Shown: in pieces, positions 3,643 to 36,043 of the stretch
Numbering within the stretch: position 1 is the first letter of the stretch
Layout of the letters: each line of letters begins with the position of its first letter
Sequence record: KM190144
Source of the DNA: Escherichia phage Av-05
DNA length: 64,000 bases
Direction: 5' to 3' (one strand)
Made by a program: the position numbers and the translations under genes
Notes under the pieces: model-generated
Told to the model about the DNA's origin: nothing
What the model saw: the letters and a program-made list of their open reading frames with translations, nothing else
The model's database searches: none

Positions 3643-3643
3643 T

Positions 3644-3988: not shown

Positions 3989-4053
3989 AATCCACTTAAC
4001 CCCAAAAATGTTAACCTCTCCAAACCTATCAGAGAGGTTTCAAAAATAATCTA

Positions 4054-5079: not shown

Positions 5080-5093
5080 ATATACTTACCTCT

Positions 5094-6661: not shown

Positions 6662-6696
6662 ATAAAGAAAAACCCGCTAAAAAGCGGGTTAATCTC

Positions 6697-6978
6697 TTAC
6701 CATGTTACAAATATGTTTATAGATGTGCCTTGTTTTGTTGGTTGATAGCTAATAATATCTACCGTGAAGCCACCACCACGAAGATCGCCAACAATATGAG
6801 GCAGGTAATCACCCATTTCCTCCGGGAACTGTAGTGACATACCCATTCCAAATAGACCTTTCTTTGCACACTGGCTGATCCCGTTTACTATCTGGTCGTA
6901 CAGTTCCACCAGAGATTTTGGGGTGTCCTTTTTCGACTTGTTCGCTATCTCTCTCATTTTGCTGGCGACATTTGCCAT
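6697..6978 (-). CDS. Hypothetical protein
   Basis: 93 aa; AGAGG RBS before ATG 6978; in-frame TAA immediately upstream. Confidence 0.45.
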   Translation of the reverse strand: MANVASKMREIANKSKKDTPKSLVELYDQIVNGISQCAKKGLFGMGMSLQFPEEMGDYLPHIVGDLRGGGFTVDIISYQPTKQGTSINIFVTW

Positions 6979-7489: not shown

Positions 7490-8415
7490 CAGTTATTCAC
7501 CTTTTCCATAGCCTCTTTCAAAAGATCTTCTGAGACACCAAGAATCTGATTTAACAAAACGTCCCGCTTATGTGGTATTGTGCGTGTTTCACTTTCACCA
7601 TATCGTAGGCTATTCAGTTGCACAAGGATTCCTTTTAACTCCTCAACATTAAAACCGTCAAAATCACGTTCATTGAGTGTTAGCATATTGAAACTGAAAT
7701 TTTCACCCCCAATCGCTATATTTAGAGGCACTTCCTGTAGTTCATCTTCAGAAACAATATCTATATTTTGCAGTGCTACACTCTTCGACTTTGCAGGTTT
7801 TGTCGTTTTCGGTCCTGTTATATACTTCAGCCCTTGTTGCTCTCTTCGGATATTCTCTTTATCCAGTAAAGCGGCTTCTGTGCGTACCAAAATATCTTCT
7901 TCTGTCAGCCAAACTTCCCCACCACCTTTAATGGTTTCCATTTCTTCAGGTGTTAGCACATCTTTATAGAAATAATCGAAGACACGATCAAAGTAGTCTT
8001 TTTGGAACACAGCTTGGCGGTAAATATTGGATCCGTCTCCACCTATCCAACCCTGGTAGTTATGGAACATAAAAATTGTCAATGGTGAAACAGTTCTCCG
8101 CTCACATGCCAACCATAATACTGTTCCTGCTGAACACACTTGGCCTTCTGCATGAACAATAACCATGGCCTGACTTTCTCTGATGGCGCTAACGTATGCC
8201 ATAGCAATAGCAACATCCCCACCCAATGTATTTATAATAATGCGTACCGTATCCTCTGGGTTGGCTGCACGAATTGTTTGTAACCGCTCTTGGTGGTCTT
8301 CCAACCAATGCATCTCGTTAACGTACACGACATGATTATTGGCATAGGCACGATATGTGAAAACATTAGAAGTCTCTACACGGTTAATATCAAATCCGTT
8401 ATTCAGTTTTTGCAT
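7489..8415 (-). CDS. ClpP-like (S14 family) serine peptidase
   Basis: INTLGGDV...GQVCSAGTVLWLA...MFHNYQGW matches ClpP core with Ser and His motifs; extra N- and C-terminal extensions. Confidence 0.5.
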   Translation of the reverse strand: MQKLNNGFDINRVETSNVFTYRAYANNHVVYVNEMHWLEDHQERLQTIRAANPEDTVRIIINTLGGDVAIAMAYVSAIRESQAMVIVHAEGQVCSAGTVLWLACERRTVSPLTIFMFHNYQGWIGGDGSNIYRQAVFQKDYFDRVFDYFYKDVLTPEEMETIKGGGEVWLTEEDILVRTEAALLDKENIRREQQGLKYITGPKTTKPAKSKSVALQNIDIVSEDELQEVPLNIAIGGENFSFNMLTLNERDFDGFNVEELKGILVQLNSLRYGESETRTIPHKRDVLLNQILGVSEDLLKEAMEKVNN

Positions 8416-8896
8416 TACAAACCTCTTCGTTTTTAATGAGGATACCCCTCAGAATGTGACTATTGCTCAAAAGCCAATCTATATTTATACCGCACTCCTC
8501 GTCAACAATAACTTTGTCACTATATCTGGAGCACCGGATAACTCTACGCGCATACTCAGCCGCTATAGCTGCTTGATGTATGATTGTAAATATGTCAAGT
8601 TCATCTTTAGTAAGATGAATGAACTTAGATTTACCATTCATGCAGATGAGATGCTCTAGCAGCTCAATTCTGTTAGAGAACATCAATTCGGCATCCTTCT
8701 TAGCAGCACTTTCAGAATAAAACATACTAGCTAAGAGGCTTTTATTAACAACTCTTAAAGAATTAGCTACCGTGGTCATATATCTGTTATAAAGCTCAGT
8801 AGCCATCTCTTCAAACACGTCAGGCTCTACAACACCACAATTCTGTAACTTTACCAAGGTATCGTTTGTTAAGACACTGTAGACAGTATTTTTCAT
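8399..8896 (-). CDS. Hypothetical protein
   Basis: ORF in track, 165 aa. Confidence 0.4.
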   Translation of the reverse strand: MKNTVYSVLTNDTLVKLQNCGVVEPDVFEEMATELYNRYMTTVANSLRVVNKSLLASMFYSESAAKKDAELMFSNRIELLEHLICMNGKSKFIHLTKDELDIFTIIHQAAIAAEYARRVIRCSRYSDKVIVDEECGINIDWLLSNSHILRGILIKNEEVCNAKTE

Positions 8897-8902
8897 TGTC
8901 CC

Positions 8903-9211
8903 CTACCTAGCAATTAGATATTGTATCTTTCCGTCATCTTCCTGATACCCAACATCTACAACATAGTATTCCCCAACATCAGGAATCAACAACTTATCCC
9001 CAACCTCGTACTCTTTTGCGGTATGGTATACCATTGATTCTGTAAAATATTTGTACTTATCCATATCGTTAATGTTGCATGAGATTTCCATTTCTCCGTT
9101 GTTGTTGGGTATGAGAATATCCTCACCATTCTTTTTCCCAACCACATAACCACCTACCAATGTTTTAACTAAGCACAGTGTTTTATTGAGTTTGTCTTGG
9201 AACTTTGGCAA
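8903..9211 (-). CDS. Hypothetical protein
   Basis: ORF in track, 102 aa. Confidence 0.4.
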   Translation of the reverse strand: MPKFQDKLNKTLCLVKTLVGGYVVGKKNGEDILIPNNNGEMEISCNINDMDKYKYFTESMVYHTAKEYEVGDKLLIPDVGEYYVVDVGYQEDDGKIQYLIAR

Positions 9212-9728
9212 AAGAATCCTCCATTTTGTCCAGGAATGTTTCCAGGAGTTTTATTCTTTCTGGTGTGTTAAGATTAAGTGTTTTAATCCCTTTCATCTTA
9301 GCAAGATTGACAGCAGTAGCCGTGCCGCCTCTTGGATTGCCATTCTTATCTTCTTTTGCAAAGTAGAGCACAAAGGAAGATGGCTTTGGGTTGTTAATAT
9401 TCACTCCCAACACTTGATGCACATTCCTAGAATGCAACGCAAATGCTGATCTGTTTCTCAACAATGCTTGTGGGTTTGGATGCACCTTTTGCACCAACTC
9501 ATCTCGATATTCTATTTGGTCGATATATAGATGGTTAATATATTGTAAGGCATAATCCCAGTTATCGTACAAACCCACTTCTTTATCACCAAAACCTTTC
9601 CATGGTATGTAGATTTCTGCGAGTCTGTTACCATACAACATTTTGGTTTTATCGTCAAGGCCATCGAAATATCGCTGCATCCCTCTCTGGAACGCTGCAT
9701 CGGCTCCTTCTGCCTTACCGCTCCGCAA
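9183..9728 (-). CDS. Hypothetical protein
   Basis: TTG start; weak DprA/SLOG-like resemblance (GKAEGADAA, RNRSA) not relied on. Confidence 0.35.
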   Translation of the reverse strand: MRSGKAEGADAAFQRGMQRYFDGLDDKTKMLYGNRLAEIYIPWKGFGDKEVGLYDNWDYALQYINHLYIDQIEYRDELVQKVHPNPQALLRNRSAFALHSRNVHQVLGVNINNPKPSSFVLYFAKEDKNGNPRGGTATAVNLAKMKGIKTLNLNTPERIKLLETFLDKMEDSFAKVPRQTQ

Positions 9729-9762
9729 TGTAAACCCTATTTTTTTTTCAAGGAGTTAAGCA

Positions 9763-11013
9763 ATGACAGCAACAACAGGTGTTGGTGGTTTAATTTATGG
9801 TCGTGCATTGGTTGATCAGAGGACAGGAAAGAAAATAAATTTTGATGAACTGGGCGGCGGGAATATTCCAGAAGACATAACAGATCTTATTGCATCTAAA
9901 GCCCCAATAGAAAGCCCTTCATTTACAGGAAACCCCCAAGCACCAACACCGTTGGATGATGCTATTGGAAAGGAAATAGCTAATGTAGAATATGTGAGGG
10001 GTTTAATTGCAAAATTGGCTGACTCAGCGCCTGAAACATTAGATACTCTCAATGAATTAGCGAAGGCATTAGGTGATGACCCTAACTTTGCGACAACCAT
10101 AACTAACGCTCTTGCTGGTAAACAACCATTGAGTGAAATACTGACATCTTTGTCAGGATTGATTACTGCCGGAAATAAACTAGCTTATTTCAGTGACAAA
10201 AACGTAATGGCTTTGGCAAATCTCTCCGCTGTTGGTCGAGTTATTATAGGGCAAGACTCAAAAACTGGGGTTCTTGATTATCTGGGGATAAAAACCGCCG
10301 CTACAAAAGATGTACAAAACGATATCTATGATGCCACCGATGGGGTAGTATCTTTGCCTGGTGCATTTGGTTTTGGGGCGTTTATCCCTGCCGAGAAAGA
10401 AGTTGTTTTTCAAGAGAAGAATGGGCCAGAGGAATGGGTTTCTTGGTTGAGAAGTGCACAACCTGGTCGTTACCTTGTTCGCCAAGATTTACCTTCAGGT
10501 GGTATACGTATTATTGAAGGGATCACATTTAGAGGTATGGTTGAGGTATTGTCCCTATTTCCAGCGGAGAGTGCGGAACAGGCATCTAAAAATAACAAAT
10601 ATGCTTATTTTTATGGTATAAATGGGGAGTTATACTCTTATCGCTTACTGACTATTTTTGCCAGTGGTGACTGGGTGAATATAAAAGGACAATTCTCTTC
10701 TTTACAGTCTACGGTAGACAATTCATGGGGGAGTCCTGATGTTGGAGGAATAATGTTAGGAGTGTATCTTGGCGCTTCGGACACTGATTCAAACAGAAAA
10801 CTTGTTCGTGGTCAGACTATCCCAGGATCCCGCATAGGGTGTATAACTCTTTACAGCAATGTTTCCGCAACAGGTGCATATCAAAGTACACCAGTTTCTG
10901 TTACACACAGTAATGAAACACAGAGAGGCACGTTTGTAGCCTTATCTGGCTCACCAAGCAACAGCGGTGGTACAGCCACAGGTTACATAGGTCTTTTTAT
11001 GAGGATTGCATAA
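9763..11013 (+). CDS. Tail fibre protein
   Basis: SPSFTGNPQAPTP tail-fibre anchor motif; AAGGAG RBS; N-terminus MTATTGVGGLIYGRALVD. Confidence 0.6.
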   Translation: MTATTGVGGLIYGRALVDQRTGKKINFDELGGGNIPEDITDLIASKAPIESPSFTGNPQAPTPLDDAIGKEIANVEYVRGLIAKLADSAPETLDTLNELAKALGDDPNFATTITNALAGKQPLSEILTSLSGLITAGNKLAYFSDKNVMALANLSAVGRVIIGQDSKTGVLDYLGIKTAATKDVQNDIYDATDGVVSLPGAFGFGAFIPAEKEVVFQEKNGPEEWVSWLRSAQPGRYLVRQDLPSGGIRIIEGITFRGMVEVLSLFPAESAEQASKNNKYAYFYGINGELYSYRLLTIFASGDWVNIKGQFSSLQSTVDNSWGSPDVGGIMLGVYLGASDTDSNRKLVRGQTIPGSRIGCITLYSNVSATGAYQSTPVSVTHSNETQRGTFVALSGSPSNSGGTATGYIGLFMRIA

Positions 11014-11582
11014 TGCTGGATATTAAAGATATTAAGTCCCCGCAGTATCTTCTTAATGGTGACGTTGATTGCCTCGTCCTTTTTGAGGGTTTCTCTGATT
11101 ATCTCCCATACACCGCTTCCAGTAACGACTGTAGCGAAACAGGAAAGGCAGTTTGGGATTCCTTACAATCTGGTAATTTTGGGGAGATTGCCCCGTATGT
11201 AGTAAACCCTCAATTTATCGAGGCATTAAAGCAACAGATGTTATCAGAAATAAAAGAGTGGAGAAAACTGGAAGAAAGCTCTACGGCTATTGTTTCTTAT
11301 AATGGTGCAAGGTATGATGTTGATAATGCAACCCTTGGTCGTATTTATCCAGTATTATTAGCACAAAAAGCATCCCCAGCCAGACAAGCTGTGGTTTGGA
11401 GAGATGTTGATAACAAACCTGTAGAGATGAGTAGCTCTGAATTTGAAAATCTTGTTGTAGCTATGTCTTCCGAGTTGGCAACTAAGAATGATTCAATATA
11501 CATCAAGCAACGAGAAATGAAAGATCAAGTGCTTTCAGCCTCTACGATTGAGGAATTACAAAGGATAAAAATTGGGTGGTAG
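11013..11582 (+). CDS. Putative tail fibre assembly/accessory protein
   Basis: Start overlaps fibre stop (ATGA); position between fibre genes. Confidence 0.3.
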   Translation: MLDIKDIKSPQYLLNGDVDCLVLFEGFSDYLPYTASSNDCSETGKAVWDSLQSGNFGEIAPYVVNPQFIEALKQQMLSEIKEWRKLEESSTAIVSYNGARYDVDNATLGRIYPVLLAQKASPARQAVVWRDVDNKPVEMSSSEFENLVVAMSSELATKNDSIYIKQREMKDQVLSASTIEELQRIKIGW

Positions 11583-13222
11583 CTATGGATTATAAGGATA
11601 AAGTTGTCAATGCTGAAGTCATACTTCCAGATGGGCATAGTATTGGAGGATCAGGACTCCCAAGCCAATCTTTTAAATTATACACAGAAGACACCGCGAC
11701 CATAAAACTTTCAGGTAATGGTGAAAAAGCAACACCACTTAAAGGTGTTGTTGTGGTGGCAGAAGATGAAAATAATGCTCTCCAAGCTGGAGATAATGGG
11801 TTAGCTGTTAAGGTGAGTCCTGCTGCAAATAACCTGCTGGAGTTGAAGCAAGGAGCATTATATGTAACAGCACCAGAGATAAATATTCCAATTTCTCCTA
11901 AAGAAGGAAACGCTTTAACAAATATAACCTCTGAAGGGGAAGAGGGGTTGTATGTTGCGCCTACCAAAGTGCAAGGATGGCTTTATGATTCTGCACCTGG
12001 TGTTGCAGCTTTGCCTGGCGCTTTCGGCTACGGAATGACAGATCCTGGAGCAATTTCACTTATTGCTAACAGTCTTGGCGATGTTGCACGTTCTGCCCAT
12101 AACCTACACCCAGGAAGGTATTATACTTTCACCACACGATCTGAGGAAATGACCGGAATAACAGAAATTATCTGGTTGGATAATGGCTGGGGCAACAAAA
12201 CCAGTCAGACAGCAACAAAGCTGGTTCTGTTTTTTGGAAAAGACGGTCGTATGAAGTATACAATCCGTGGCGACAATCTAAGCGATCCGGCAGTGTGGTA
12301 TGATTTGTTAACTACTAAGCAAACAGATATCTATGATCGTACAGAAGGTGTTGTCGCCATACCTGGCATGTTTGGATTCGGTAGTGATTTCGTCGGTATT
12401 GATACTGTCTATTTTAACAACAAAGCGGAGTTCCTTACTTGGGTGCATAATACTCGTTCTGGTCGTTATCTGGTGAGCCAGATATATGGTAGCGAGCCTA
12501 TCATTAACAGCAATGTTACGTTTAGCGGTATTCTTGAGGTTATCCCAACTGGTAGTGTTGGCGTTGGTTACGAGGAGAATTTACCTAACGTATGGAAAAA
12601 CCTTATTTTTTACGGCGCTAATTACGGCGATATCTGGTACACACGTTTTACCACACAACCGAATAACTTGTCTGGTTGGAGGTGCTTAGATAAGACAACG
12701 GATATAATCAATTTGCAGAACTCGCTTAATAGAAAAGCTCCATTGTACAACCCTAATTTCTCTGGTACACCAACAGTACCTACACCAAGCGATTCAGCAT
12801 CAGGAACCCAGATTGCCAACGTAGATTTTGTTAAAAAACAGGTATCTAATAACACTTACACACTGTCTGCTGGCACGGTTACTGTTTTAGATAGTGGATC
12901 ACAACCTACTATTGAGATAACTGGTCAATCACCATCACAGGTTTTAAATTTGGGAATACCAAAAGCACCTGATGGACAAACAATAAAATCTGTCAATGCT
13001 GTTGTTAAAGAAATAGACAGCGCACAACAGGTTACACTAACTTTTACAATGACAGATGATTCAAGTCAACAGGCGAGCTTTAATATCCCGTTTTCTCCTC
13101 AGCCGACTATGAAGCTGTCAGCAACATCTGGGAATTTCTCTTTCAATTATGGCGATACACCTTCAGCGGAAAAACGCAGCGGGAAGATCTGGGTCTTCTA
13201 TATATTTGAAAACAACAGTTGA
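11576..13222 (+). CDS. Tail fibre protein, N-terminal part (frame-shifted relative to 13149-13553)
   Basis: PNFSGTPTVPTPSDSASGTQIANVDFV fibre motif; stop at 13220 inside overlap with next frame. Confidence 0.55.
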   Translation: MVAMDYKDKVVNAEVILPDGHSIGGSGLPSQSFKLYTEDTATIKLSGNGEKATPLKGVVVVAEDENNALQAGDNGLAVKVSPAANNLLELKQGALYVTAPEINIPISPKEGNALTNITSEGEEGLYVAPTKVQGWLYDSAPGVAALPGAFGYGMTDPGAISLIANSLGDVARSAHNLHPGRYYTFTTRSEEMTGITEIIWLDNGWGNKTSQTATKLVLFFGKDGRMKYTIRGDNLSDPAVWYDLLTTKQTDIYDRTEGVVAIPGMFGFGSDFVGIDTVYFNNKAEFLTWVHNTRSGRYLVSQIYGSEPIINSNVTFSGILEVIPTGSVGVGYEENLPNVWKNLIFYGANYGDIWYTRFTTQPNNLSGWRCLDKTTDIINLQNSLNRKAPLYNPNFSGTPTVPTPSDSASGTQIANVDFVKKQVSNNTYTLSAGTVTVLDSGSQPTIEITGQSPSQVLNLGIPKAPDGQTIKSVNAVVKEIDSAQQVTLTFTMTDDSSQQASFNIPFSPQPTMKLSATSGNFSFNYGDTPSAEKRSGKIWVFYIFENNS

Positions 13223-13553
13223 TCTGAACAGAGCACCTGCTGGCAGTACAGATGTTATGGTGGATGTTCGTTTGACAGAGATACCTTGTACGGAAGACGG
13301 TACGTATCTTGATTATGATATCTATGCAGAATACCCAAGTGTTGTCGGGTCAGGGCAACCCACAGTGGCTGTATGGCTTATTCTGCCAACAGTTCCCACG
13401 CATACCATTGATCCCAAGACGAAGATAATAACTAAACTTCTTCGCGGAGACGGTGGCTTATCAGGACTTAATGGAGTCATTCCTATTGCAGGTGCAGACG
13501 AACAAGTCCACGAGTTTAAATATTTCTTGCAATATTCTTATCTAAACAACTAA
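13149..13553 (+). CDS. Tail fibre C-terminal part (+1 frame continuation, no RBS)
   Basis: No Shine-Dalgarno before ATG 13149; frame is +1 to upstream ORF; A5 run at 13170-13174 in overlap. Confidence 0.4.
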   Translation: MAIHLQRKNAAGRSGSSIYLKTTVDLNRAPAGSTDVMVDVRLTEIPCTEDGTYLDYDIYAEYPSVVGSGQPTVAVWLILPTVPTHTIDPKTKIITKLLRGDGGLSGLNGVIPIAGADEQVHEFKYFLQYSYLNN

Positions 13554-16527: not shown

Positions 16528-17940
16528 ATGGCTTATAATGACAAGGTGGTTGATGTAACAGTCACACTTGGTACTCAACCAATCGACACAAAAGGGTTTG
16601 AAACCCCACTGTTCCTTGCGATCCATAATGTCTTCCCAGAAAGAGTTCGTGCTTATACCGAACTTAGTCAGTTAGTTGATGATGGATTTGCTGTTGGAAC
16701 ACCTGCATACAATTATGCATCTAAGGCATTTTCTGGAACATTCCGTCCACAATATCTGATGATTGGTCGTCAAGGCTTCACCAACACCGTTGTGGATTTT
16801 ACAGGACAAACTAACACAGATCCAGAGACACCTGTTGCATTGAATTTTGTTTCCGGTGCTTACCAGAAAAGCATTATTGTTAACGTTTCAGCTTCCTCTG
16901 AAGCAAATGCGATAGCTACATCTCTGGCAGCTGCGATTAATGCAGACACAACCCTGCAAACAGTACTTACTGCGACAGCAAGTGAAGCCAAAGTAACAAT
17001 TGCTCCAAAAGATGATGGTAAGTTTAGTGTTGGTAAGGACAGTGGCAACATGGTCATCACCAATACCTCTGATGAAACAGTTTCTTCTGTTCTCCCACAG
17101 GTTATGACTGCCAATGAAAACTGGTATTTCGTCAGTACTGAATCCCACACTAAGACATCTATTTTGAGTGCTGCTGCCTTTGCTGCTGCAAATTACAAGA
17201 TGCATGTTTACTCAACTGCTGACGAAAAATCTAAAACTGCCGATACCGATTCTATTGCAGATCAACTCAAAGCATTGCAATACGACACATCTATCGGTAT
17301 GTATGATCCTTTGGCAGACAGTGAGTATCCCGAGGGTGGGATTATCGGAGCGATGGCTTCGAATGACCCTTCCTATGGGGATTCTATCCACCTGAAAACT
17401 ATGGATGGGGTCATTGCTCCAACCTTAAGCGCAACGGAACGTATGACTATCTGGGGTAAGAATCTGAACTTCTACCGCATGATTAATGGTGTGGGATCCT
17501 TCTATGAAGGCAAATGTGCTTCCGGCAATTATGTAGATGTTGTGAGATTTGGTCACTGGCTTAAGTTCCGCACCGAAGAAAGTGTTTTCGGATATATGTC
17601 CCGCAGATCCAACATGGGGCTGTCTGTTAAAATGAGTGATGATGACCTCCCTAACCTGAAGTCTGTCATCATGAATAACCCTATCAACGTAGGTATTTCT
17701 AACGGAGCTATTTTAACAGGTTATGATGAGGTTAACAAGGTCTTCTTCGATCCTGTAATCACAATCCCTCTGCGTGGAAGCATACCCACTAACGATCTGG
17801 CAGCACGTACACTTAACAACGTGAAAGTGGAACTAGTGTACAACACACCACTACATTTTGTCAAGATCCGTATGACTGTCATGCTGGACAAAACAGGTTC
17901 AAATTCTGGCAACGCACAGACAGTAACAGCAGGAGTGTAA
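16528..17940 (+). CDS. Tail sheath protein (putative)
   Basis: 470 aa acidic protein directly upstream of a 157-aa tube-sized gene, chaperones and tape measure; AAGAGG RBS. Confidence 0.5.
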   Translation: MAYNDKVVDVTVTLGTQPIDTKGFETPLFLAIHNVFPERVRAYTELSQLVDDGFAVGTPAYNYASKAFSGTFRPQYLMIGRQGFTNTVVDFTGQTNTDPETPVALNFVSGAYQKSIIVNVSASSEANAIATSLAAAINADTTLQTVLTATASEAKVTIAPKDDGKFSVGKDSGNMVITNTSDETVSSVLPQVMTANENWYFVSTESHTKTSILSAAAFAAANYKMHVYSTADEKSKTADTDSIADQLKALQYDTSIGMYDPLADSEYPEGGIIGAMASNDPSYGDSIHLKTMDGVIAPTLSATERMTIWGKNLNFYRMINGVGSFYEGKCASGNYVDVVRFGHWLKFRTEESVFGYMSRRSNMGLSVKMSDDDLPNLKSVIMNNPINVGISNGAILTGYDEVNKVFFDPVITIPLRGSIPTNDLAARTLNNVKVELVYNTPLHFVKIRMTVMLDKTGSNSGNAQTVTAGV

Positions 17941-25318: not shown

Positions 25319-25633
25319 GTGGCTGCTCAATTTGGATTAAATGACTACGGTTTTTCAATTCCGTCCCTTGATGACTTGATAACAGATACCAAGCAATCCC
25401 TTATTAGAGCTTTTGGTGAAAACTTTAACACCCAAACTAACTCCGTTGTTGATAAGATCACTACTATTTTCAACGAAAGGGAATATCAATTAATTCTTTT
25501 GGCTGCATCTATTTATGCAGCACAAACGTTAGCAGGGGCAGAAGGTATATATCTTGACGAGATTCTTGGTCGTCGTGGGATATTCCGTAGAGGAAAAACC
25601 AAAGGGTCCGGTACTGGTTCAAATGGTAATTAA
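25319..25633 (+). CDS. Baseplate J-like protein, N-terminal part (frame-shifted)
   Basis: N-terminus of baseplate J-type protein; stop at 25631 inside overlap with next frame. Confidence 0.45.
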   Translation: MAAQFGLNDYGFSIPSLDDLITDTKQSLIRAFGENFNTQTNSVVDKITTIFNEREYQLILLAASIYAAQTLAGAEGIYLDEILGRRGIFRRGKTKGSGTGSNGN

Positions 25634-26813
25634 TAACACAGTGCCGTATAATATGATTTATGATGCCGCAACATACAGTATTGACGGTGGGAATTTTGTG
25701 TTAACAGAAGATACTGCCGTTGCTGGTAATATCATAGCGCAGCAAATAACCAATCAGGATTGGGTTCTTGGTAACTACACCATCCAGATAGTTAACCAGA
25801 ATGATGGGACAACAAAGACACTGAACCTATCTCTGAAAAACAAAACCCCAAACAGCACCGAATTAAACTCTTTTATGATGGCTATGAAAGAGTTTATAGT
25901 CGATAATACAACTTATCTGAACGAAGATAAGATCTTTATCGAATCTTCTTCAGGAAGTATGTTTATAGGTTATGATCAAAATAAGAAAATGATTGGTCTT
26001 AATGCTCCTGTTGACTTTAGAACATCACCCCTGCTTGGTCAAAGAACAATAACCATGGATGTTATTGCTGTTGAAGCAGGAGAAATATCTAGAGAAGCAG
26101 AGACAGTTACCAACATAAGCCCGACACCAAGTGGTTTTGTTAGCTTGACGAACAGGGAAGCATTTAGTGATGGTACAGATGTTGAGACGGATACAGAATA
26201 TAAGCTGAGGGCTTCGAGCACCACATCAACAGGTGCTGCCGCAACACGGCCAGCTATTGTTTCTGCTGTTTTAAATGTGCCTGGTGTAAGTAAGGTTAAA
26301 ATTTTCTCCAACAATACTGGTGTGACAAACGAGTACGGTGTTCCAGCGTATAAGTTTGAGACAGTAGTCTATGGTGGGGCCACAGAAGATATCAGTAAGG
26401 CACTTTATAATACCATAGCACTCTCTAATGCTACTTATGGTGATGTATTCTATGATGTGACTACAGAAGATGACCAAGTAGAAAGAATTTATCATAGCAA
26501 GGCAAAAGTAAGGCAACTTGAAATTCGTGTCAGATATAAAGGTAAATTACTATCCCTTACAGAACAGAACACGATCAGGGATTCCCTTAAAGCTGTTGTT
26601 GATCCTCTTAACATTGCAGATACGTTGTACAATATCCAACTTGTTTCTGCTGTGGGGTCATCCATCTCATCAGGTAGATTTACTCAACTTTTAGTAGATG
26701 TCAAAAACAAAGGTGAACCAGACAGTACGTATACTAATGATGATATTGTTGCTACTATGACAGAAGTTTTCGCTGTAGAGTTAAATGACATAACTTTCCA
26801 GCAAGTTCTTTAA
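25554..26813 (+). CDS. Baseplate J-like protein, C-terminal part (+1 frame continuation)
   Basis: 419 aa in +1 frame; A5 run at 25594-25598 in the overlap. Confidence 0.45.
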   Translation: MTRFLVVVGYSVEEKPKGPVLVQMVINNTVPYNMIYDAATYSIDGGNFVLTEDTAVAGNIIAQQITNQDWVLGNYTIQIVNQNDGTTKTLNLSLKNKTPNSTELNSFMMAMKEFIVDNTTYLNEDKIFIESSSGSMFIGYDQNKKMIGLNAPVDFRTSPLLGQRTITMDVIAVEAGEISREAETVTNISPTPSGFVSLTNREAFSDGTDVETDTEYKLRASSTTSTGAAATRPAIVSAVLNVPGVSKVKIFSNNTGVTNEYGVPAYKFETVVYGGATEDISKALYNTIALSNATYGDVFYDVTTEDDQVERIYHSKAKVRQLEIRVRYKGKLLSLTEQNTIRDSLKAVVDPLNIADTLYNIQLVSAVGSSISSGRFTQLLVDVKNKGEPDSTYTNDDIVATMTEVFAVELNDITFQQVL

Positions 26814-26823
26814 GGATGTTATT

Positions 26824-27501
26824 ATGGCAGACTATTTAAAAGATGTAAATCATATACACACACTGCCAGATTTCGTTGAGGGAGGTATTGACTATCTCCC
26901 TGGTGATTTTCTGAAAGAGAAAAAGAATCTTGTAAAATTTCTGACAATATACCTTGAAAGATTGAAAGCTGTTGATGAGATGCTTGTAAAGCTATCAGAA
27001 GGTAGATTATTAAGGAATGCCGCAGGGCTGAATCTTGATGAGATAGGTAATCAGGTTGGTATTGAGAGAAACGGGCTTGATGATGCCACCTATAGGGCAA
27101 TAATAATGATCTTGGCTGCTGGATCTGCAAGACACGGTACAAGACCAGAGTTTATTGAAACATTAAATCAACTGTTTGGTGTTGGAAATTTTACAACTTA
27201 CAAAGGGGATAATTACCGTTTTGACGTAAACGTATCGAAAAGCTGTTTCGACTTAGCAGCAGCGATAGATGAGATACTTGACCTATTACCGTTACCAACG
27301 CATCTTAGACTAACAGAGTCTGTGGGTTTGGCGTTTGGTTTTAAGAATGACAAACATGCACTTGGATTCGGATCTGTGACAGAGAAATCAAGAACTGGTG
27401 ATGGTGGTTTAGCCCATCTAGTTTACGTACCGGATCCACCAAGAACATCGGATGACATCCTTATTTATGTTGACAATATTTCTGTAGATGCTACAGAGTA
27501 G
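26824..27501 (+). CDS. Baseplate wedge protein (putative, tail-protein-I-like position)
   Basis: 225 aa directly after J-like gene. Confidence 0.35.
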   Translation: MADYLKDVNHIHTLPDFVEGGIDYLPGDFLKEKKNLVKFLTIYLERLKAVDEMLVKLSEGRLLRNAAGLNLDEIGNQVGIERNGLDDATYRAIIMILAAGSARHGTRPEFIETLNQLFGVGNFTTYKGDNYRFDVNVSKSCFDLAAAIDEILDLLPLPTHLRLTESVGLAFGFKNDKHALGFGSVTEKSRTGDGGLAHLVYVPDPPRTSDDILIYVDNISVDATE

Positions 27502-27513
27502 AGGAGACCACAT

Positions 27514-29577
27514 ATGACAGAGGCTATTTTCACAGCCAGAAGAGAAGATGACTCTGTAGCTGTTAGCTTTGACTATGAAACAATATCAAACACAGCTATT
27601 GCTGGAAGAGATTATACACCCAAAGTAGGTACGGCAACAATTCCTAAAGGGGAAAAGTCTGTACAGATACCTGTGGAGATAAAACAACATCCTAAAAACT
27701 CATTACCAAGAGAATTTACCTTGAAAATGAGTAATCCGTCTTTTGGTGCAAGGCTAGACAGGCTGGCTTCCAGATGTGTTATTAGCACCAAGGAGGATAT
27801 GTCTGAGTTGGGGTGGGGAACAAAAGAAGAGAAAATGTTTCTACCTAAATATTGGACAATTGATTCTCAGCCCACAGAAAGTTGCTCTATAATATCTAAT
27901 GGTAATATACTTACAGCTTATATGACTAATAGAACTGTAAGCGGTTTAGCAGGGGTTATTTGGAGCACAAAAGATAAGTATGATCATAAAGGGATCTCTT
28001 TTCAAGATCACACAGATCTTCGAAACGCTAAACTGTGGTTCGATATAGAGTTGGGCGACGGAATGCCTGATTTTAATAATGAGAAATTGACCCCGACATT
28101 AACTCTTAAACTTTTAGATGGGGCGACCCATTATATCCCTCTGTACGCTTATGCTGAAAATATCGGTGAGGATTATAAAAGAGCCACAATCAAACTTGAT
28201 TTTTCAAATTTAAAATCCGGCCCTGATGTGAACGTGCCAGTGGATACCTCTCAAGTGGATCAGTTTTTCTTTTCTATGATATCTGAGAAGTATGCAGAAG
28301 GAGAAGATGTTGTCCCTAAAGAAAATCAGAACCTTATGTTGAAAATAACTCTTAAAGAGCCTGATACAGGCTATACAATGATGAGAGTTAATAATTTGAC
28401 AATTCCTGCACATGATGTGCGTATGTGTACATCCTATGATGATATGTATAACCTGACACCTGAACGAGTGGTGGACAACTGCTTGAAACTTGGGTACAGG
28501 GATATGATAAACCACTATAATGGTATGTCGCATTATTACGAGTTCTCTTGGGAAAGCTCCGCATGGAAACTGAACAAAGATGTCCCTGTCAATAATGCAA
28601 CCCTACAATGGATGAATAACTATTTCGCACTGACACGAGCAAATGGTTATAAGGTTATCAATTCTATTAGTTTTGAGTTGATGAGTACTGTATGTCCGGC
28701 AGAATGGGTGCAGCATGATTGGAATGATGCATTAGCTGAAACAGGATACACACCACCAAGTTGGGTATTATCTCCTAATATTAATGAGGGTATGCAATAT
28801 ATCCAAAGTGTGATAAATAAAATAGCAGCCACATGCGAACAAGCTAACCAGGTTGTTATCATTCAGATAGGGGAGCCTTGGTGGTGGTATAATACTGCTA
28901 CAAATTTACCTTGTGTGTATGATTATACTACAAAAGCGCGTTTTAATGAAGAGACTGGATTGTATGCTCAAGACATGGGGACAATTTATGACTTTAAGAC
29001 CGGAACACCCTATGATGAGTATGTAGATTTTCTAAGACAGTGCTTAGGGGAGCGAGTGGTAAAATTCGGTGCTGATCTTAAAAAATCTTATCCTAATGCA
29101 AAAATAACACTTTTACCGTTTTTACCATCCATTATTGGTAATGGTATTATGGAAAAGATAAATTTCCCTAGTGGTAGTTATACACCTGAGAATTTTGATC
29201 TCTATTGCTCCGAGTGCTATGACTGGTTACTCCAAGGGAAAATGGAAAAATCATTCCAAGCCATCACCATTCCGCGAGATGTCTTAAAATTTAAAGAAGA
29301 TAAGATACATTATCTGGCAGGATTTGTTCCAGACGAAGGGCTAGCACCATTATACGGATTTGACCCTAATTCTAATTATAGAGAATATCTTTGGAAAATG
29401 ATTATAGGGAACATTGTCCTTAATGAGTTTAAGTTTCCAGGTATTTATCAATACATATGGGCGTATCCACAAGTAATGCATGATTCTATAACAGTGCACA
29501 ACTCTCAATCCGCAGTCTTTCATATGGGGCATACAGCATTGAAAGGGTATTTAAAAGATACCCCACCAGAAGTTTAA
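27514..29577 (+). CDS. Calx-beta domain tail protein (putative receptor-binding or glycan-interacting)
   Basis: N-terminal AVSFDYETISNTAIAGRDYTPKVGTATIPKGEKSVQIPVEI fits Calx-beta pattern; 687 aa W/Y-rich. Confidence 0.4.
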   Translation: MTEAIFTARREDDSVAVSFDYETISNTAIAGRDYTPKVGTATIPKGEKSVQIPVEIKQHPKNSLPREFTLKMSNPSFGARLDRLASRCVISTKEDMSELGWGTKEEKMFLPKYWTIDSQPTESCSIISNGNILTAYMTNRTVSGLAGVIWSTKDKYDHKGISFQDHTDLRNAKLWFDIELGDGMPDFNNEKLTPTLTLKLLDGATHYIPLYAYAENIGEDYKRATIKLDFSNLKSGPDVNVPVDTSQVDQFFFSMISEKYAEGEDVVPKENQNLMLKITLKEPDTGYTMMRVNNLTIPAHDVRMCTSYDDMYNLTPERVVDNCLKLGYRDMINHYNGMSHYYEFSWESSAWKLNKDVPVNNATLQWMNNYFALTRANGYKVINSISFELMSTVCPAEWVQHDWNDALAETGYTPPSWVLSPNINEGMQYIQSVINKIAATCEQANQVVIIQIGEPWWWYNTATNLPCVYDYTTKARFNEETGLYAQDMGTIYDFKTGTPYDEYVDFLRQCLGERVVKFGADLKKSYPNAKITLLPFLPSIIGNGIMEKINFPSGSYTPENFDLYCSECYDWLLQGKMEKSFQAITIPRDVLKFKEDKIHYLAGFVPDEGLAPLYGFDPNSNYREYLWKMIIGNIVLNEFKFPGIYQYIWAYPQVMHDSITVHNSQSAVFHMGHTALKGYLKDTPPEV

Positions 29578-29592: not shown

Positions 29593-30663
29593 ATGGCTAT
29601 ACCAAGTATACCAATCGAGATTTGGGCAGCGGGAGATGTAATTCTCCCTAATACTCACGGGGAGAACAAAATAAGACCTATTGACGACCTTTGGTTAAAA
29701 GGTTGGGATATGGGAGAAAAACCAGCTTGTGAAGAGTTTAACTATGTTCTTCATATGATGACAAGTTGGATAAAATATGTTACAGGGGATCAAATTCCTG
29801 AATTAGATACAAGATTTTTAAGAAGAAGTGAAAATCTGTCTGATTTAGCGGATAAGGAAACATCCAGAGTCAACCTTGATGTGTGGAGCAGATCAGAGGC
29901 CGACAACCGTTACGTGAATGTAACGGGAGATACAATGACAGGAGCTTTGTCATTGCCGAGATTGAATTTTCAACCTTCTGAGACAGATACTGCGTATATC
30001 ACAACTACAAATCCGGCTTCTGACTGGACGTACTGGGATTTTGTTCTTGGAGATAATCCAGGAACAGCAGGGACAAACGGTGTAGATTCTATACGTTTCC
30101 GATTCTCTCCTTCAGGTAACTCTGGGATGTTCACTATGATGGAGCTTAATGCTATTAGCTCCTCAGCGGCTTTGTGTAAAGTAACAGGAAATGTTGTTGC
30201 CACAGGCACTGTACAAGGAACAAATGTTAATGGCACAAATGCAACATTCACCACAACAAGAACATCCTCTTTGACGGCTACAGGGCAAATTCAAGGTCAA
30301 ACTGTTGTAGCAACAAGCTCATTAACAACACCATATGCAAGGGTTAATGGGGAAGCGAATGTAAATTCACTGGTTGTAAATAATAACTCTGCAAGGGTTG
30401 CGGGGAGAAATATCGTAAGATCTGTTAATGGTGTAGGTGCTGACGGGAATGGTAATGTTAACTTACCAACAGGAAGTGTTCAGCAAATAAGACTTGGTAA
30501 TCGTTTCTCTGCGGGGGTTGTTGAGTCTACGTTTTATCCTGGACATGTAATGACTGGCTGGGCATTTGGTAATAAAAAGGAATTGAGAGGTGGTACGTAT
30601 TACACTGCTCCTTTGCAATATCTTGTGAATGGTCAATGGGTAACAGTAACAAATTTAAACTAA
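29593..30663 (+). CDS. Tail fibre protein
   Basis: T/S/G/N/V-rich beta-repeat region (TGNVVATGTVQGTNVNGTNATFTTTRTSSLTATGQIQGQTVVATSSLTT). Confidence 0.5.
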   Translation: MAIPSIPIEIWAAGDVILPNTHGENKIRPIDDLWLKGWDMGEKPACEEFNYVLHMMTSWIKYVTGDQIPELDTRFLRRSENLSDLADKETSRVNLDVWSRSEADNRYVNVTGDTMTGALSLPRLNFQPSETDTAYITTTNPASDWTYWDFVLGDNPGTAGTNGVDSIRFRFSPSGNSGMFTMMELNAISSSAALCKVTGNVVATGTVQGTNVNGTNATFTTTRTSSLTATGQIQGQTVVATSSLTTPYARVNGEANVNSLVVNNNSARVAGRNIVRSVNGVGADGNGNVNLPTGSVQQIRLGNRFSAGVVESTFYPGHVMTGWAFGNKKELRGGTYYTAPLQYLVNGQWVTVTNLN

Positions 30664-30666
30664 GGG

Positions 30667-31218
30667 GTGCATATGTACAAAATCTATGGTAATTTTCAGC
30701 CTTACACACCTGAAAGAACAGAGTATAATTCGGCCTTCATAGACACAGGGGCAGGTTTCCTTAAAGACAGTGATGGTAGAGATTGGTATGAATTATCAAA
30801 AGAACTAGCTGATAACAAAGCGGAAAACCAAAAATTTTTGCTTCTGACTTCGGATGATATAGTCCTCTGTGTCTCACAAGACCCAACCGCTTATTTTCCT
30901 TATGGAATGAAAATAGTAGTTATTGAGAATCTTACTGTAAACTTAGACCCTAAACTCGGGCATATAAAATTTACAGATGGAGAATTTTTTGATTATAACA
31001 AAGAAGCGGTAGAACAAGCTCAATCAATTATAGAAACAGAAATGATGTGGGCTTCTAATCAAATCTCTACCTTGGAGGATATGATCTCTATGGGATTGGG
31101 TACAGAGAGTAGAAAAAAATATCTGGAAAAATTAAAAGAGTATCGCATAAAACTGTTTTCGTTAGACCCTGAAGAAGATATGAATATTTCTTTACCAGAC
31201 AGACCTTCTAAAAAATAA
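30667..31218 (+). CDS. Tail fibre assembly protein (Tfa-like chaperone)
   Basis: C-terminus LKEYRIKLFSLDPEEDMNISLPDRP resembles Tfa C-terminal signature; follows a fibre gene. Confidence 0.45.
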   Translation: MHMYKIYGNFQPYTPERTEYNSAFIDTGAGFLKDSDGRDWYELSKELADNKAENQKFLLLTSDDIVLCVSQDPTAYFPYGMKIVVIENLTVNLDPKLGHIKFTDGEFFDYNKEAVEQAQSIIETEMMWASNQISTLEDMISMGLGTESRKKYLEKLKEYRIKLFSLDPEEDMNISLPDRPSKK

Positions 31219-32303: not shown

Positions 32304-34058
32304 GTGGCAGACATGACTAAATTTGAACAGGCGGTCGATCAGGTTGTAGAAGATTCTGAACGCCTTCATAAAGTTGTCAATGGGGCAGCTACTGAAACTG
32401 TAGTTACAGAGGATGGCAGTCTGATACCTACAGTCAGAAAAGCATTTCTTGACAATTTATTCTTTAAAACACCTCCACTACCGTGGGTTGCTGGACAACA
32501 GGCAACGGTATTTAATCAGTTGTATGCTTATACAGGGGAAAGAGGTGTCCAATGGTGGTATGCACCCGGTGCGACAGAGAGTTCACCTGTAACACTACCT
32601 TCTAATCCAGTCAACAATGTTAACTGGAGATTATACAACGATTCAGAATCTATGTCTCAGCTATTTGCGCCTATTGACAGCCCTATCTTTACAGGGAACC
32701 CTCAAGCACCAACACCATCAGCGGATAGTAACAGTACAACTCTGGCAACAACACAATTCGTTACCAGAGCTATTGCTACCGCTTTGGCTGGAATTGCGGG
32801 TGGAAATGGTACATTCGCAGATCTTACTGTAACAGGTTTAGCTAGTCTTAATACGCTTTCTGTTGGCGGTGTATCAACATTTAATGGGCCTGTTAATGCT
32901 GACAACCAAACAGGAAAATTCCAGAATCTTATCTTAACAAAAGATAATTCAAGCCTATCTTTTGCCTACAGTGATGATTCTAACCCGACGTTTATAAAAA
33001 CAAGGCTTGAAGCATACTCAGCACAGACCCATCAGTTACATACAGATATCATCATAAACGGTGTGCCAGTAGCAGACAATACAACAATGTCTTTCACAGG
33101 TCTTGGTAATAATACCTTCGACTATGTTTATATTACAGGCAACTCTAAAAAAGACCCATCTGAAGCTCGTCTCAAAGTTTCTGGGATGACAGAACTTGAA
33201 AACTTAAAGATCACAGGTACTGTAACAGGACTTTCTTTTTCTGTCAATGGGGAAGACATCTCGCCTAATTCTGTAACAACGGCACAAGGGGTTACTGTAG
33301 GTGGTGATTTACAAGTCAATGGTAACACCAATCTCAACAGTACAACATGTGAGAGCTTAGAAGTTACTAACAACCTTGTTGTTAATGGACAAACCAGCCT
33401 CAAGGATTTCTCCTCTACAACTGGTAATGTCACAGGGCTATTAACTTTAGGGGAGGGATTCACTGCGACTGGTGACGGGTCTGTAGGTGGTGATCTAACT
33501 GTCAACGGAACTTCAACCCTTGGTAAGATAATATCTGATGGTGATGTGACTTTAAATAGATCTTCTGGCACAACAACAGTAAACAATTTGGTTGTTAAGG
33601 GGACTGTATCTGGTATTACGTTTGATTTGACAGGACAAAACGTAAACGTAGCATCTCTTTCTGCTCAAAGCAGTGTAACGACAAATCAGTTATTTGTTAA
33701 CGGCCAGGCACAACTTTCTTCCACCAATGTAAGTTTCCTAACTTTACAATCGGAAGAGGTTGACGATCCAACAGCAACATGGACACCAAGCGGCACATCC
33801 AACATTTATAATATCACAGTGAATAAAAATCTGACAATCGGAGCATGGCCTGATCCACAGCAACCTTTCTCCGCTATGATTTATCTGACGCAGGATGCCA
33901 CAGGTGGACACAGTGTAACTCTGGATCCTAATTATGTTGTCCTTAACAGTGAAACTGTTAATACGGCAGCAAATTCAGTTACCATCCTTCAATTAACCTT
34001 TAATGGTGTTGAAGATGGGGTTGTTGACACCATTATTGTCCGTAGACCACAACCATAA
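32304..34058 (+). CDS. Tail fibre protein
   Basis: SPIFTGNPQAPTPSADSNSTTLATTQFV anchor motif; repeated NGxTxL/VxG beta-repeats. Confidence 0.6.
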   Translation: MADMTKFEQAVDQVVEDSERLHKVVNGAATETVVTEDGSLIPTVRKAFLDNLFFKTPPLPWVAGQQATVFNQLYAYTGERGVQWWYAPGATESSPVTLPSNPVNNVNWRLYNDSESMSQLFAPIDSPIFTGNPQAPTPSADSNSTTLATTQFVTRAIATALAGIAGGNGTFADLTVTGLASLNTLSVGGVSTFNGPVNADNQTGKFQNLILTKDNSSLSFAYSDDSNPTFIKTRLEAYSAQTHQLHTDIIINGVPVADNTTMSFTGLGNNTFDYVYITGNSKKDPSEARLKVSGMTELENLKITGTVTGLSFSVNGEDISPNSVTTAQGVTVGGDLQVNGNTNLNSTTCESLEVTNNLVVNGQTSLKDFSSTTGNVTGLLTLGEGFTATGDGSVGGDLTVNGTSTLGKIISDGDVTLNRSSGTTTVNNLVVKGTVSGITFDLTGQNVNVASLSAQSSVTTNQLFVNGQAQLSSTNVSFLTLQSEEVDDPTATWTPSGTSNIYNITVNKNLTIGAWPDPQQPFSAMIYLTQDATGGHSVTLDPNYVVLNSETVNTAANSVTILQLTFNGVEDGVVDTIIVRRPQP

Positions 34059-34064
34059 TATAAA

Positions 34065-34090
34065 AGGCCACAGCAGTGGCCTTTGTTTTA
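34065..34090 (+). terminator. Rho-independent terminator
   Basis: AGGCCAC-AGCA-GTGGCCT hairpin then TTGTTTTA. Confidence 0.6.
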
Positions 34091-34099
34091 GGAGGATTA

Positions 34100-36043
34100 A
34101 TGTATCCAATCCCTTGTTTTTATATCATAATTTCCAATAACCCTCTAGCCAACTCCATTTCCTTAACCTCCCTCGGTACGTGTCTTAAAGGAGGCAAAGC
34201 ACAATTAATATGGTCTGTTGTGCCAGAAGGTGCAGACTTGCATGATATAACATTTACACCAGACAAACCGACAATTGTATCTGTTGATCCTACGGGGCTA
34301 GTATCTTTTCTTGAAGATGGTGATTTTATCATCACAATGTCTGCAAAGACTGGCAAAGGAGATGAAGAAAAGACCTTAACAGCACAAATCAATGGGCATG
34401 TTGACACATTACGCATTGATGTTGATCCTATAGGCAGCAGAAGCATTAGTGATAGATTCTGGTTTGTCTACAAAGGCGACCCGTCTTTTGACCCAGGCAA
34501 TCCGAATCCGAATATGATTGGCTTTAACATCTCCCCAGCAGAAGTTATGGAGGAGGATGACTTTTATGTCACCGCAGTTTCTGAAACACCTGATATATTA
34601 AGTCTGGCTCCTAGTGGTATCATTACATGTGTTAGTAAAGGTGTTGGGCATTGTGGCATGAAAGGAACCTATAAAGATGTGACAGTAACGACGCTTACCG
34701 ATGTATATGTGGATATAGCACCAGCACTTATAAATCCGACTGCTGTAGCCAACAGTTATGGTGACGTTAAGATAGCGTGGGATGTTCAATTTCCCTCCTC
34801 GGATGATATTTATACCGTAGAGGTTTATGACCCTAAAATGCCAGATGCTGTGTGGAGTAAGAAAACCAAAGACACATTCGTATTCTTTGATGTTACAGAA
34901 TCAGTGCCTATCTTTGGATTCGCCCCTACATATCTTGATGTGGTCATCAAAGGATCAAATCCAGAAACACAACCTATAAGTCCTGATAGGAATATAACTG
35001 TTGACGACTCTTTTGTTAAAGAGGTGCTTGTTTTTGCTGGCGGTGATAACGCAGCAGCGCATTTTAACTCTTTTTCTGGTAGGGATAAAACAACCCAAAG
35101 TGCGACCACAGCACGTAATGAGTATGCTCTCAGCAAAGGGTTTTACCCAGCAGAAGTATTACCAATCAATGCCGCATTCATTACATCTTGTGCAGAAGCA
35201 CAGGCAAACTCCTCTACAGGGTTAGCCACAAATTACTGGTATGACGTTAGTTCCTCCACAGCAGGTCCGTGTCTAACACAGTTCCTTGCGAAGGTTAAAC
35301 CTTATAAGGATAAAATTAAGGCTGTTTTCTGGTCGTTAGGGGAACAAGATGCCATGGTAGCAGCAGCAAAACAAGAGGGAAAACATAGCGATGATGCTCG
35401 TTTTCAGACTGCTATGACCGCCATCTTTGAAAATATCCGATCTGTTATCACAAATCCTGAAGCCAAGATTGTATTGCAGACACTTGGCAGATGCTTTGAT
35501 GATGATGTGGAAGTAGGTGGTGTTGAGTGGTATCGTTATAGAAATATTCAACAACAGTTAGTGGTAGATTCCAAGGGTGGAGTTATAATTGGCTCTTGGG
35601 TTGATGGCGCTGAACACTACGGCAATTATGTTGTTTCAGGGGCAGGGGGTGGTTTAAGAATACACTACCGACCAACAATTTATAAGAATGCCGCAATATC
35701 CTTGGCTAACATGGAGGACTTGTCGAGCACACCTCCTGCTTGGGTGGATATGAAAGTTCCCATGGGAGGAAAGGCAGTAAGGCAAGCAAACCAAGATATT
35801 CTTTTATCATGGGATACCAGAGACTACAGCAAGTTCTCTCTTTTTAACTTTGATGTCCTGACAGGGGCTGTTATATCCCAACAAACATTGACCACCAATA
35901 GTTACACATTTACCTACGCAGATCAAGTAAAACAGTACGGGTATGCTGCGGGTACAGTTTTGTTTGGTGTTGCATATGTTCAAACAACCAGTAAAGGTGA
36001 TATTACATCTCCGTTGGCGAAATTCAATATTAATGTAGCGTGA
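34100..36043 (+). CDS. Tail fibre/spike protein with Ig-like and SGNH/SASA-like esterase domains (putative)
   Basis: GGAGG RBS 4 nt before ATG 34100 (track GTG 34076 is inside terminator hairpin); VLVFAGGDNA and FWSLGEQDA resemble SASA/SGNH esterase motifs. Confidence 0.4.
   Translation: MYPIPCFYIIISNNPLANSISLTSLGTCLKGGKAQLIWSVVPEGADLHDITFTPDKPTIVSVDPTGLVSFLEDGDFIITMSAKTGKGDEEKTLTAQINGHVDTLRIDVDPIGSRSISDRFWFVYKGDPSFDPGNPNPNMIGFNISPAEVMEEDDFYVTAVSETPDILSLAPSGIITCVSKGVGHCGMKGTYKDVTVTTLTDVYVDIAPALINPTAVANSYGDVKIAWDVQFPSSDDIYTVEVYDPKMPDAVWSKKTKDTFVFFDVTESVPIFGFAPTYLDVVIKGSNPETQPISPDRNITVDDSFVKEVLVFAGGDNAAAHFNSFSGRDKTTQSATTARNEYALSKGFYPAEVLPINAAFITSCAEAQANSSTGLATNYWYDVSSSTAGPCLTQFLAKVKPYKDKIKAVFWSLGEQDAMVAAAKQEGKHSDDARFQTAMTAIFENIRSVITNPEAKIVLQTLGRCFDDDVEVGGVEWYRYRNIQQQLVVDSKGGVIIGSWVDGAEHYGNYVVSGAGGGLRIHYRPTIYKNAAISLANMEDLSSTPPAWVDMKVPMGGKAVRQANQDILLSWDTRDYSKFSLFNFDVLTGAVISQQTLTTNSYTFTYADQVKQYGYAAGTVLFGVAYVQTTSKGDITSPLAKFNINVA

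Follow-up and report, generated by a model that had tools for sequence, protein, structure and literature searches.

A surface glycan that is widely conserved among enterobacteria, the N4 glycan receptor (NGR), has a chemical structure that is still called enigmatic. Phage N4, the Vequintavirinae and the phi92-like phages require wecB and nfrB, and not the remaining enterobacterial common antigen (ECA) pathway, i.e. the NGR exopolysaccharide (Sellner et al. 2021, PMC8669472), which has been proposed to be a polymer of N-acetylmannosamine (ManNAc) exported by NfrA (Junkermeier and Hengge, PMC8669469). In a 2026 preprint, phi92 gp142 was named the NGR receptor-binding protein of these myoviruses, with the k-mer GMSHY as a predictive feature. 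Here we describe a gp142 ortholog of Escherichia phage Av-05 (sequence record KM190144), encoded within a stretch of 64,000 nt that we call the window. An earlier note on this DNA had read the open reading frame (ORF) at 27514-29577 as a calcium-binding Calx-beta domain followed by aromatic-rich sequence, and had suggested an unusual receptor-binding or glycan-recognition component. We favor, with moderate confidence, a three-domain peripheral baseplate protein that would be mounted on the wedge and would bind, and perhaps cleave, the NGR through a (beta/alpha)8 barrel. The BASEL orthologs of this protein were tied to a common wecB dependence by Maffei et al. (PMC8594841), and because the orthologs have already been proposed as NGR binders, the target is another member of a described family; the glycan-receptor role, which is the core finding, is already known or proposed for these orthologs.

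The ORF has exactly the limits given in the earlier note and encodes 687 aa. The gene, its ribosome-binding site and its three domains are laid out as follows:

27514..29577, plus strand, target coding sequence (CDS) of 687 aa, with ATG at 27514 and the stop codon ending at 29577; ortholog of phi92 gp142
27501..27506, plus strand, Shine-Dalgarno sequence GAGGAG, 7 nt before the target ATG and sharing two bases with the end of the stop codon of the upstream Wedge1 gene
27514..27798, plus strand, truncated Calx-beta / Ig-like beta-sandwich, residues 1-95, from Pfam, AlphaFold2 (AF2) and Foldseek
27835..28338, plus strand, NCTSP_N beta-sandwich (PF23844), residues 108-275, from Pfam; homologous to N4 gp65 at about residues 57-130
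28405..29484, plus strand, (beta/alpha)8 barrel, TIM-barrel_NCTSP (PF23845), residues 298-657, in one piece in the target

The gene sits in a tight operon, the next gene beginning 16 nt past its stop codon. Its closest sequenced relative is that of Escherichia phage 24-2-1 (Vequintavirinae; Avunavirus), which aligned over 2064 of 2064 nt with 0 indels, at 96.6% nucleotide and 98.4% amino acid identity; the mostly synonymous differences and the lack of any indel indicate a real gene under purifying selection, and the phage that carries it is a Vequintavirinae (Avunavirus-like) myovirus. The nearest relatives have been deposited as Avunavirus scaffolds of 77-80 kb, while record ON075799.1 has 133,882 bp, and the 77-80 kb records probably represent only part of a phage genome of ~135 kb. 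Full-length orthologs were found by tblastn in 245 phage records (matches with at least 80% coverage), at amino acid identities of 60-62% in Justusliebigvirus (phi92-like) and Phapecoctavirus and 42.6% in Vequintavirus (rV5-like), and the three-domain architecture is kept in more than 200 sequenced rV5-, phi92- and phAPEC8-like coliphages, so that the component can hardly be called unusual, as it had been; its NCTSP part is itself a curated Pfam family. The protein Bas60_0026 of phage PaulScherrer matches the target at 62% amino acid identity over 99% of its length, and its gene is 98.2% identical in nucleotides to phi92 gene 142, which by sequence makes the target an ortholog of gp142. The gp142 orthologs of Justusliebigvirus, Phapecoctavirus and Vequintavirus have the same three domains as the target, with the Calx-beta-like N-terminus, GMSHY and the invariant barrel residues. 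Several GenBank records of 'Campylobacter phage' (MG0656xx, host C. jejuni) also contain a gene of this family, either at 97-98% nucleotide identity to the gene of PaulScherrer (Justusliebigvirus) or, like the rV5-like coliphages, at ~42.6% amino acid identity to the target, and these records look like misattributed coliphage genomes.

Residues 108-657, in which the earlier note recognized no motif, match two Pfam families strongly and in order, NCTSP_N at 66.6 bits (E 2e-18) and TIM-barrel_NCTSP at 259.6 bits (E 5.5e-77), the gathering cut-off being 27 bits for both. N4 gp64 and gp65 are the only solved relatives by sequence, gp64 being found at E 9e-33 and, with the family profile, at 1e-67. 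In structure comparison, the target barrel has a (beta/alpha)8 fold closest to glycoside hydrolase (GH) families, with matches to GH42 beta-galactosidase, GH29 fucosidase, GH153 of PgaB/BpsB (6au1), GH14, Cwp19, GH164, GH5 and GH20. Sequence identity to GH153 (PgaB/BpsB) and the other (beta/alpha)8 glycosidases is only 7-11%, their profiles are unmatched, and hhalign of the family alignment with a single E. coli PgaB sequence gave no meaningful alignment (probability 0.6%). The remainder of the protein is aromatic-rich, as had been noticed: the share of Trp, Tyr and Phe is 13.5% over residues 101-687 and 15.6% in the barrel, compared to 8.9% in the other structural proteins, which fits a carbohydrate-handling barrel.

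The C-terminal ends of the barrel strands are the catalytic face of TIM barrels. In the target, the conserved residues are distributed over the strands as D309/D310 (beta1), N333-H-Y and GMSHY (beta2), S386/E388 (beta3), E454 and the following WWW (beta4), E567/D570 (beta6) and W649 (beta8). Four of these elements are given here with their coordinates:

28435..28443, plus strand, Y308-D309-D310, an invariant acidic pair just past barrel strand beta1
28522..28536, plus strand, G337-M-S-H-Y341 (GMSHY), the published NGR-predictive k-mer and here a family-wide signature
28870..28887, plus strand, G453-E454-P-W-W-W458, with an invariant Glu right after beta4, a candidate catalytic acid
29209..29226, plus strand, S566-E567-C-Y-D570-W571, with an invariant Glu/Asp past beta6, a second candidate active-site element

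Across the family, the motifs GMS[HKRT]Y, YDD, NHY, SxE, QIGEPWWW, PCxYD and TExYDW are invariant or nearly so, including in proteins from a Deinococcus prophage and from Acinetobacter chromosomes. GMSHY, found at residues 337-341 of the target, is therefore a signature of the family and not an NGR-specific determinant, since GMS[HKRT]Y is kept family-wide in these distant proteins. In the GH153 enzyme BpsB, the key residues are D326/D328, H473-D474 (the catalytic acid on beta4) and E585 (PMC5933820). Their spacing of 148/111 residues is very close to the 145/113 of the target, an analogy in position rather than a superposition; going by strand position and spacing alone, E454 could be the equivalent of BpsB D474, and the position of the beta4 Glu would be analogous to that of the beta4 catalytic acid of GH153, GH20 and GH18. 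Because D309/D310, E388, E454, E567 and D570 are invariant at the strand ends from coliphages to Acinetobacter and Deinococcus, it can be proposed, more speculatively than the binding role, that the barrel probably cleaves glycosidic bonds and does not act simply as a lectin, with E454 on beta4 as the likeliest catalytic acid.

The solved relatives of the target form the non-contractile sheath heterodimer gp65/gp64 of N4 (PDB 9lc0, 9yf4), in which the NCTSP_N domain and the TIM barrel are homologous to those of the target and to which the target is also similar in structure. The two phages differ in that N4 is a podovirus whose gp65/gp64 surround the tail tube, whereas the phage described here has a true contractile sheath, and in that the N4 proteins carry no Calx-beta module. 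An association with the NGR glycan is common to N4 and the phages with target orthologs. In N4, two genes share the barrel, residues 374-416 of gp65 corresponding to positions 4-46 of PF23845 and residues 109-407 of gp64 to positions 60-347, and in the heterodimer that cryo-EM shows, gp64 and gp65 therefore probably complete one barrel between them. After its part of the barrel, gp65 continues for ~1000 aa of further domains that resemble a separate 655-aa protein of the target phage, and here the domains found in the N4 sheath protein are thus divided between two proteins, the target and the 655-aa protein. The genes concerned are:

1487-5635 of the N4 sequence used, gp65, encoding the first part of the barrel
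5668-6921 of the N4 sequence used, gp64, encoding the rest of the barrel
34076..36043, plus strand, in the window, 655-aa tail protein with an N-terminal Big_2 Ig-like domain, the rest aligning with N4 gp65 residues 440-586 and 623-1045 (E 6e-16), and with a weak SASA/SGNH esterase signal

The 655-aa protein was also considered as an ortholog of the protein encoded after gp142 in phi92-like phages, an arrangement that would have resembled the order of domains in N4 gp65, and this was rejected, BLASTP finding no similarity between them. In the 2026 preprint, the homology between the myovirus proteins and N4 was given as 59-76 residues and convergent evolution was proposed. Our alignments cover NCTSP_N and the entire barrel, ~550 residues, and because the homology has this extent we favor common descent for the N4 pair, which may have arisen through an insertion and gene fission, over the convergence proposed in the preprint.

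The N-terminal Calx-beta match reported in the earlier note was confirmed. Pfam matched Calx-beta (PF03160) to residues 9-80 at 30.6 bits (E 3.8e-7; gathering cut-off 27 bits), a PDB sequence search with residues 1-107 found CBD1 (calcium-binding domain 1) of Drosophila CALX and the Calx-beta domain of integrin beta4 at E 4e-5 to 3e-4, Foldseek on the AF2 model found CALX CBD12 (3rb7 at E 7e-8, 3rb5 at E 5e-7), and an exhaustive phmmer search returned giant proteins with 10-33 Calx-beta repeats, each matching target residues ~3-97. The profile and fold matches that the note had asked for, by domain search and structure prediction, were thus both obtained, and the homology is genuine. The module is, however, incomplete. 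AF2 places six strands in it (3-9, 17-25, 38-43, 49-56, 66-73 and 85-90, at pLDDT 92-96), and the Calx-beta profile is covered only at positions 30-102 of 119, with the match beginning ~3-9 residues from the protein N-terminus, which indicates that the first strand or strands of a canonical Calx-beta domain are absent. Calcium binding, which the note had also claimed, finds no support, because the acidic cluster is absent from the target and its orthologs: the Ca2+-binding cluster IDDDVFEEDE of CALX CBD1 aligns to 'IKQHPKNSLPRE' of the target, with KQHPKNSLPRE in place of the cluster, and all of the orthologs, with the pattern V(E/D)V(Q/Y/F)ERP(A/K)NS..., likewise lack it. Thus, while the sequence profile and the beta-sandwich fold of Calx-beta domains (NCX/CALX CBD1-2, integrin beta4; PF03160) match the target, its truncated module without the Ca2+ cluster is in this respect nearer to the non-calcium-binding integrin beta4 type than to the exchanger CBDs.

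The window contains a complete myovirus tail module, consisting of sheath, tube and chaperones; tape measure, Dit-like protein, hub and spike; wedge proteins, a Baseplate_J-like protein and Wedge1; and then the target and fibers. The target lies, as had been stated, between the baseplate genes and the fiber genes:

16528..17940, plus strand, contractile tail sheath gene (phrog_205, E 2.9e-113)
25319..26813, plus strand, Baseplate_J-like wedge gene, present as overlapping ORFs 25319-25633 and 25554-26813 that are split by an extra G at 25616
26824..27501, plus strand, baseplate wedge protein DUF2612/Phage_Wedge1 (PF11041), directly upstream of the target and its probable docking partner
29593..31218, plus strand, short tail fiber (356 aa) and tail-fiber assembly protein (183 aa), downstream of the target and followed by further fibers

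Because a contractile sheath, a tube and a full set of baseplate genes are encoded by this phage itself, it is unlikely that the target forms a sheath, and the NCTSP family name describes N4 and not the target. Docking on the wedge is suggested by two members of the family (P0011 and P0109) in which a Wedge1 (PF11041) domain is fused N-terminally to NCTSP_N and the TIM barrel, within an operon of hub, spike, sheath initiator and wedge. Taken with the Wedge1 gene immediately upstream of the target, these fusions provide Rosetta-stone-type evidence for docking on the wedge, with the N-terminus of the target as a putative adaptor. A similarity by BLASTP between the Wedge1 part of P0011 and the protein upstream of the target was marginal (E 0.04), and the link between the fusions and that protein rests on the common PF11041 and on synteny. 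Such a fusion of Phage_Wedge1 (PF11041), NCTSP_N and the TIM barrel was seen on a metagenomic myovirus contig (3565-6021), right after genes for hub, spike, sheath initiator and a 484-aa wedge protein, an order that mirrors the separate Wedge1 gene and target of the phage described here. In the rV5-like phages, as in the target phage, the gene follows Wedge1 and precedes the short tail fiber, whereas in the phi92-like phages it lies between large lateral fiber genes.

Some of the neighboring genes deserve mention in their own right. The Baseplate_J-like gene is a single CDS of 1494 nt in phage 24-2-1, and the extra G at 25616 may have arisen in sequencing or assembly, or it may be genuine, making this essential baseplate gene frameshifted or a pseudogene. 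Two stretches are strongly divergent from 24-2-1, with many indels: the fiber gene at 11576-13553 in its C-terminal part, and the short tail fiber at its tip (30494-30663). The target and the genes at 32304-36043 are 92-97% identical to 24-2-1 with no indels; receptor-binding tips commonly vary in this way next to conserved proteins that target glycans. A second frameshift was considered in the fiber gene at 11576-13553 and rejected, the allelic divergence at its C-terminus being extensive and not a simple indel.

Beyond the coliphages, the exhaustive phmmer search returned 1688 cluster representatives at E up to 1e-10, a number that includes proteins matching the Calx-beta repeat region only. 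The NCTSP module is widespread and mobile, being found N-terminal, internal or C-terminal in proteins of 392 to more than 2000 aa, and the domain in front of it varies: Calx-beta-like in the rV5/phi92/phAPEC8 group, Wedge1 in P0011 and P0109, and other modules or none elsewhere. A 623-aa protein of NCTSP_N and TIM barrel, with no obvious signal peptide, is encoded on the Acinetobacter baumannii chromosome (8001-9872) and is highly conserved in many Acinetobacter genomes. Its gene lies outside any prophage, between genes for catalase, alcohol dehydrogenase and a chaperone-usher fimbrial operon, and yet its annotations read 'phage capsid protein' or 'non-contractile tail sheath protein'. Because this homolog stands alone, away from prophage and virion genes, it argues that the function of the barrel is autonomous and probably enzymatic.

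The model that we favor can be stated as follows. The target would be mounted on the wedge, probably via the adjacent Wedge1 protein, as the modularity of the family and the fusions suggest. The Calx-beta-like module would serve as a lineage-specific adaptor or spacer on the wedge rather than as a calcium-dependent lectin; more speculatively, a partner could supply its missing first strand. The conserved pocket of the barrel would bind the NfrB/NfrA-made, WecB-dependent, ManNAc-containing exopolysaccharide NGR, judging from the literature on the relatives, the conservation and the fold, and by this binding the phage may get past the O-antigen layer to the cell surface. Several observations weigh against this model. 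The target sequence matched no GH family of CAZy or Pfam, with no GH hit in Pfam at E up to 10, the family-profile search of the PDB found N4 proteins only, and no acidic residue follows barrel strand beta7, the site of the nucleophile of clan GH-A. As to specificity, the conserved pocket and GMSHY cannot alone encode recognition of the NGR, since the proteins from Acinetobacter chromosomes and from a Deinococcus prophage have them too; the genera for which NGR dependence has been demonstrated or predicted are Vequintavirus, Justusliebigvirus and Enquatrovirus only, and not that of the target phage; and in N4, where the classical data have gp65 binding NfrA, a recent model has the gp66 appendages making the first NGR contact. 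As to docking, the gene is not adjacent to Wedge1 in phi92-like genomes, which leaves the docking partner uncertain and weakens the Rosetta-stone evidence.

The points concerning the GH families and the beta7 nucleophile also favor the main rival, a catalytically dead, lectin-like barrel that would bind the NGR reversibly without cleaving it, and in the literature on the N4 tail we found no activity reported for gp64 or gp65. Against this, five acidic residues of the catalytic face do not vary even between very distant hosts, which is more typical of chemistry than of host-specific binding, and PgaB proved to be an active GH153 enzyme with a single catalytic acid on beta4 (PMC5933820). We consider the dead barrel a real but minority possibility. 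The target might instead have a structural role only, as a baseplate adaptor or scaffold on which other fibers are carried, and no receptor role of its own: one ortholog is labelled 'adaptator protein', the N4 homologs form a structural sheath, and in phi92-like phages the gene lies between large lateral fiber genes. This is harder to reconcile with the active-site-like conservation, with the published genotype-phenotype association of the protein with NGR use (2026 preprint), or with the Acinetobacter homolog, whose isolation from virion genes points to an autonomous function, and we hold it to be improbable.

Two further readings attach the function to another domain or another chemistry. 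Ig-like domains on phage particles can bind carbohydrates weakly, and the profile and fold matches of the Calx-beta domain are genuine, so the receptor function might come from that domain as a calcium-binding adhesion or glycan-recognition module, as the earlier note had it. This reasoning fails because the Calx-beta sandwich is truncated (the first ~29 profile positions are missing), has no calcium site (KQHPKNSLPRE replaces the cluster, which all orthologs lack), and is replaced by other modules in homologs; relatives that swap it for Wedge1 or for nothing suggest a particle-attachment module and not a conserved core, and we regard a receptor role of this kind as very doubtful. The earlier interpretation was thus partly supported, being right in spirit and wrong in the domain and the reason: the evidence and the phi92 gp142 literature fit a component for receptor binding or glycan recognition at the periphery of the baseplate, while the GH-like TIM barrel is the likely glycan-handling part. 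Least probable of all, and scarcely credible to us, is the polysaccharide deacetylase for which the orthologs have been annotated. The Bas60_0026 protein is described in BASEL as 'lateral tail fiber with glycosidase and deacetylase domains', a Phyre2-based annotation there reads 'poly-GlcNAc deacetylase domain', and a GenBank label reads 'tail fiber with poly-beta-1,6-N-acetyl-D-glucosamine N-deacetylase'. This naming is mistaken, because the structural match to PgaB is 6au1, which is the C-terminal GH153 hydrolase domain only (PMC5933820), and because the target has no match to the carbohydrate esterase family 4 (CE4) in Pfam at E up to 10. The esterase-like SASA signal is in a different protein, at 34076-36043, and any deacetylase of the system is more likely to be found in that 655-aa protein than in the target.

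In a bolder and more tentative proposal, which we think more apt to fail than to hold, the NCTSP barrel would found an unrecognized GH family, with a beta4 Glu as the acid and carboxylates on beta1 and beta6, that cleaves the NGR in coliphages. The family would span cellular proteins of Acinetobacter, baseplate proteins of myoviruses and the N4 sheath; gp65/gp64 of N4 would have arisen from a contiguous gp142-like gene by insertion and fission, i.e. by common descent and not by convergence; and strand complementation would be the means by which the strand-deficient Calx-beta module docks on the wedge.

The analysis corrects three annotations that have been propagated among the orthologs, whose labels vary between 'lateral tail fiber protein', 'non-contractile tail sheath', 'capsid and scaffold protein' and 'adaptator protein'. 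NCBIfam provided no model from which the target, the Wedge1 protein or the 655-aa protein could be named. 'Capsid and scaffold protein' is clearly wrong, as is 'non-contractile tail sheath' in a myovirus, and 'poly-GlcNAc deacetylase' should likewise be dropped. [quoted passage not shown] A soluble, well-folded barrel in a single chain is more convenient than the split gp65/gp64 pair of N4, and it could be used to detect, bind or digest the NGR, or serve as a module for host-range engineering. The remaining interest lies in the barrel as a possible new family of glycosidases with the NGR polymer as substrate, and in the gene fission that may connect these myovirus baseplate proteins to the sheath of N4.

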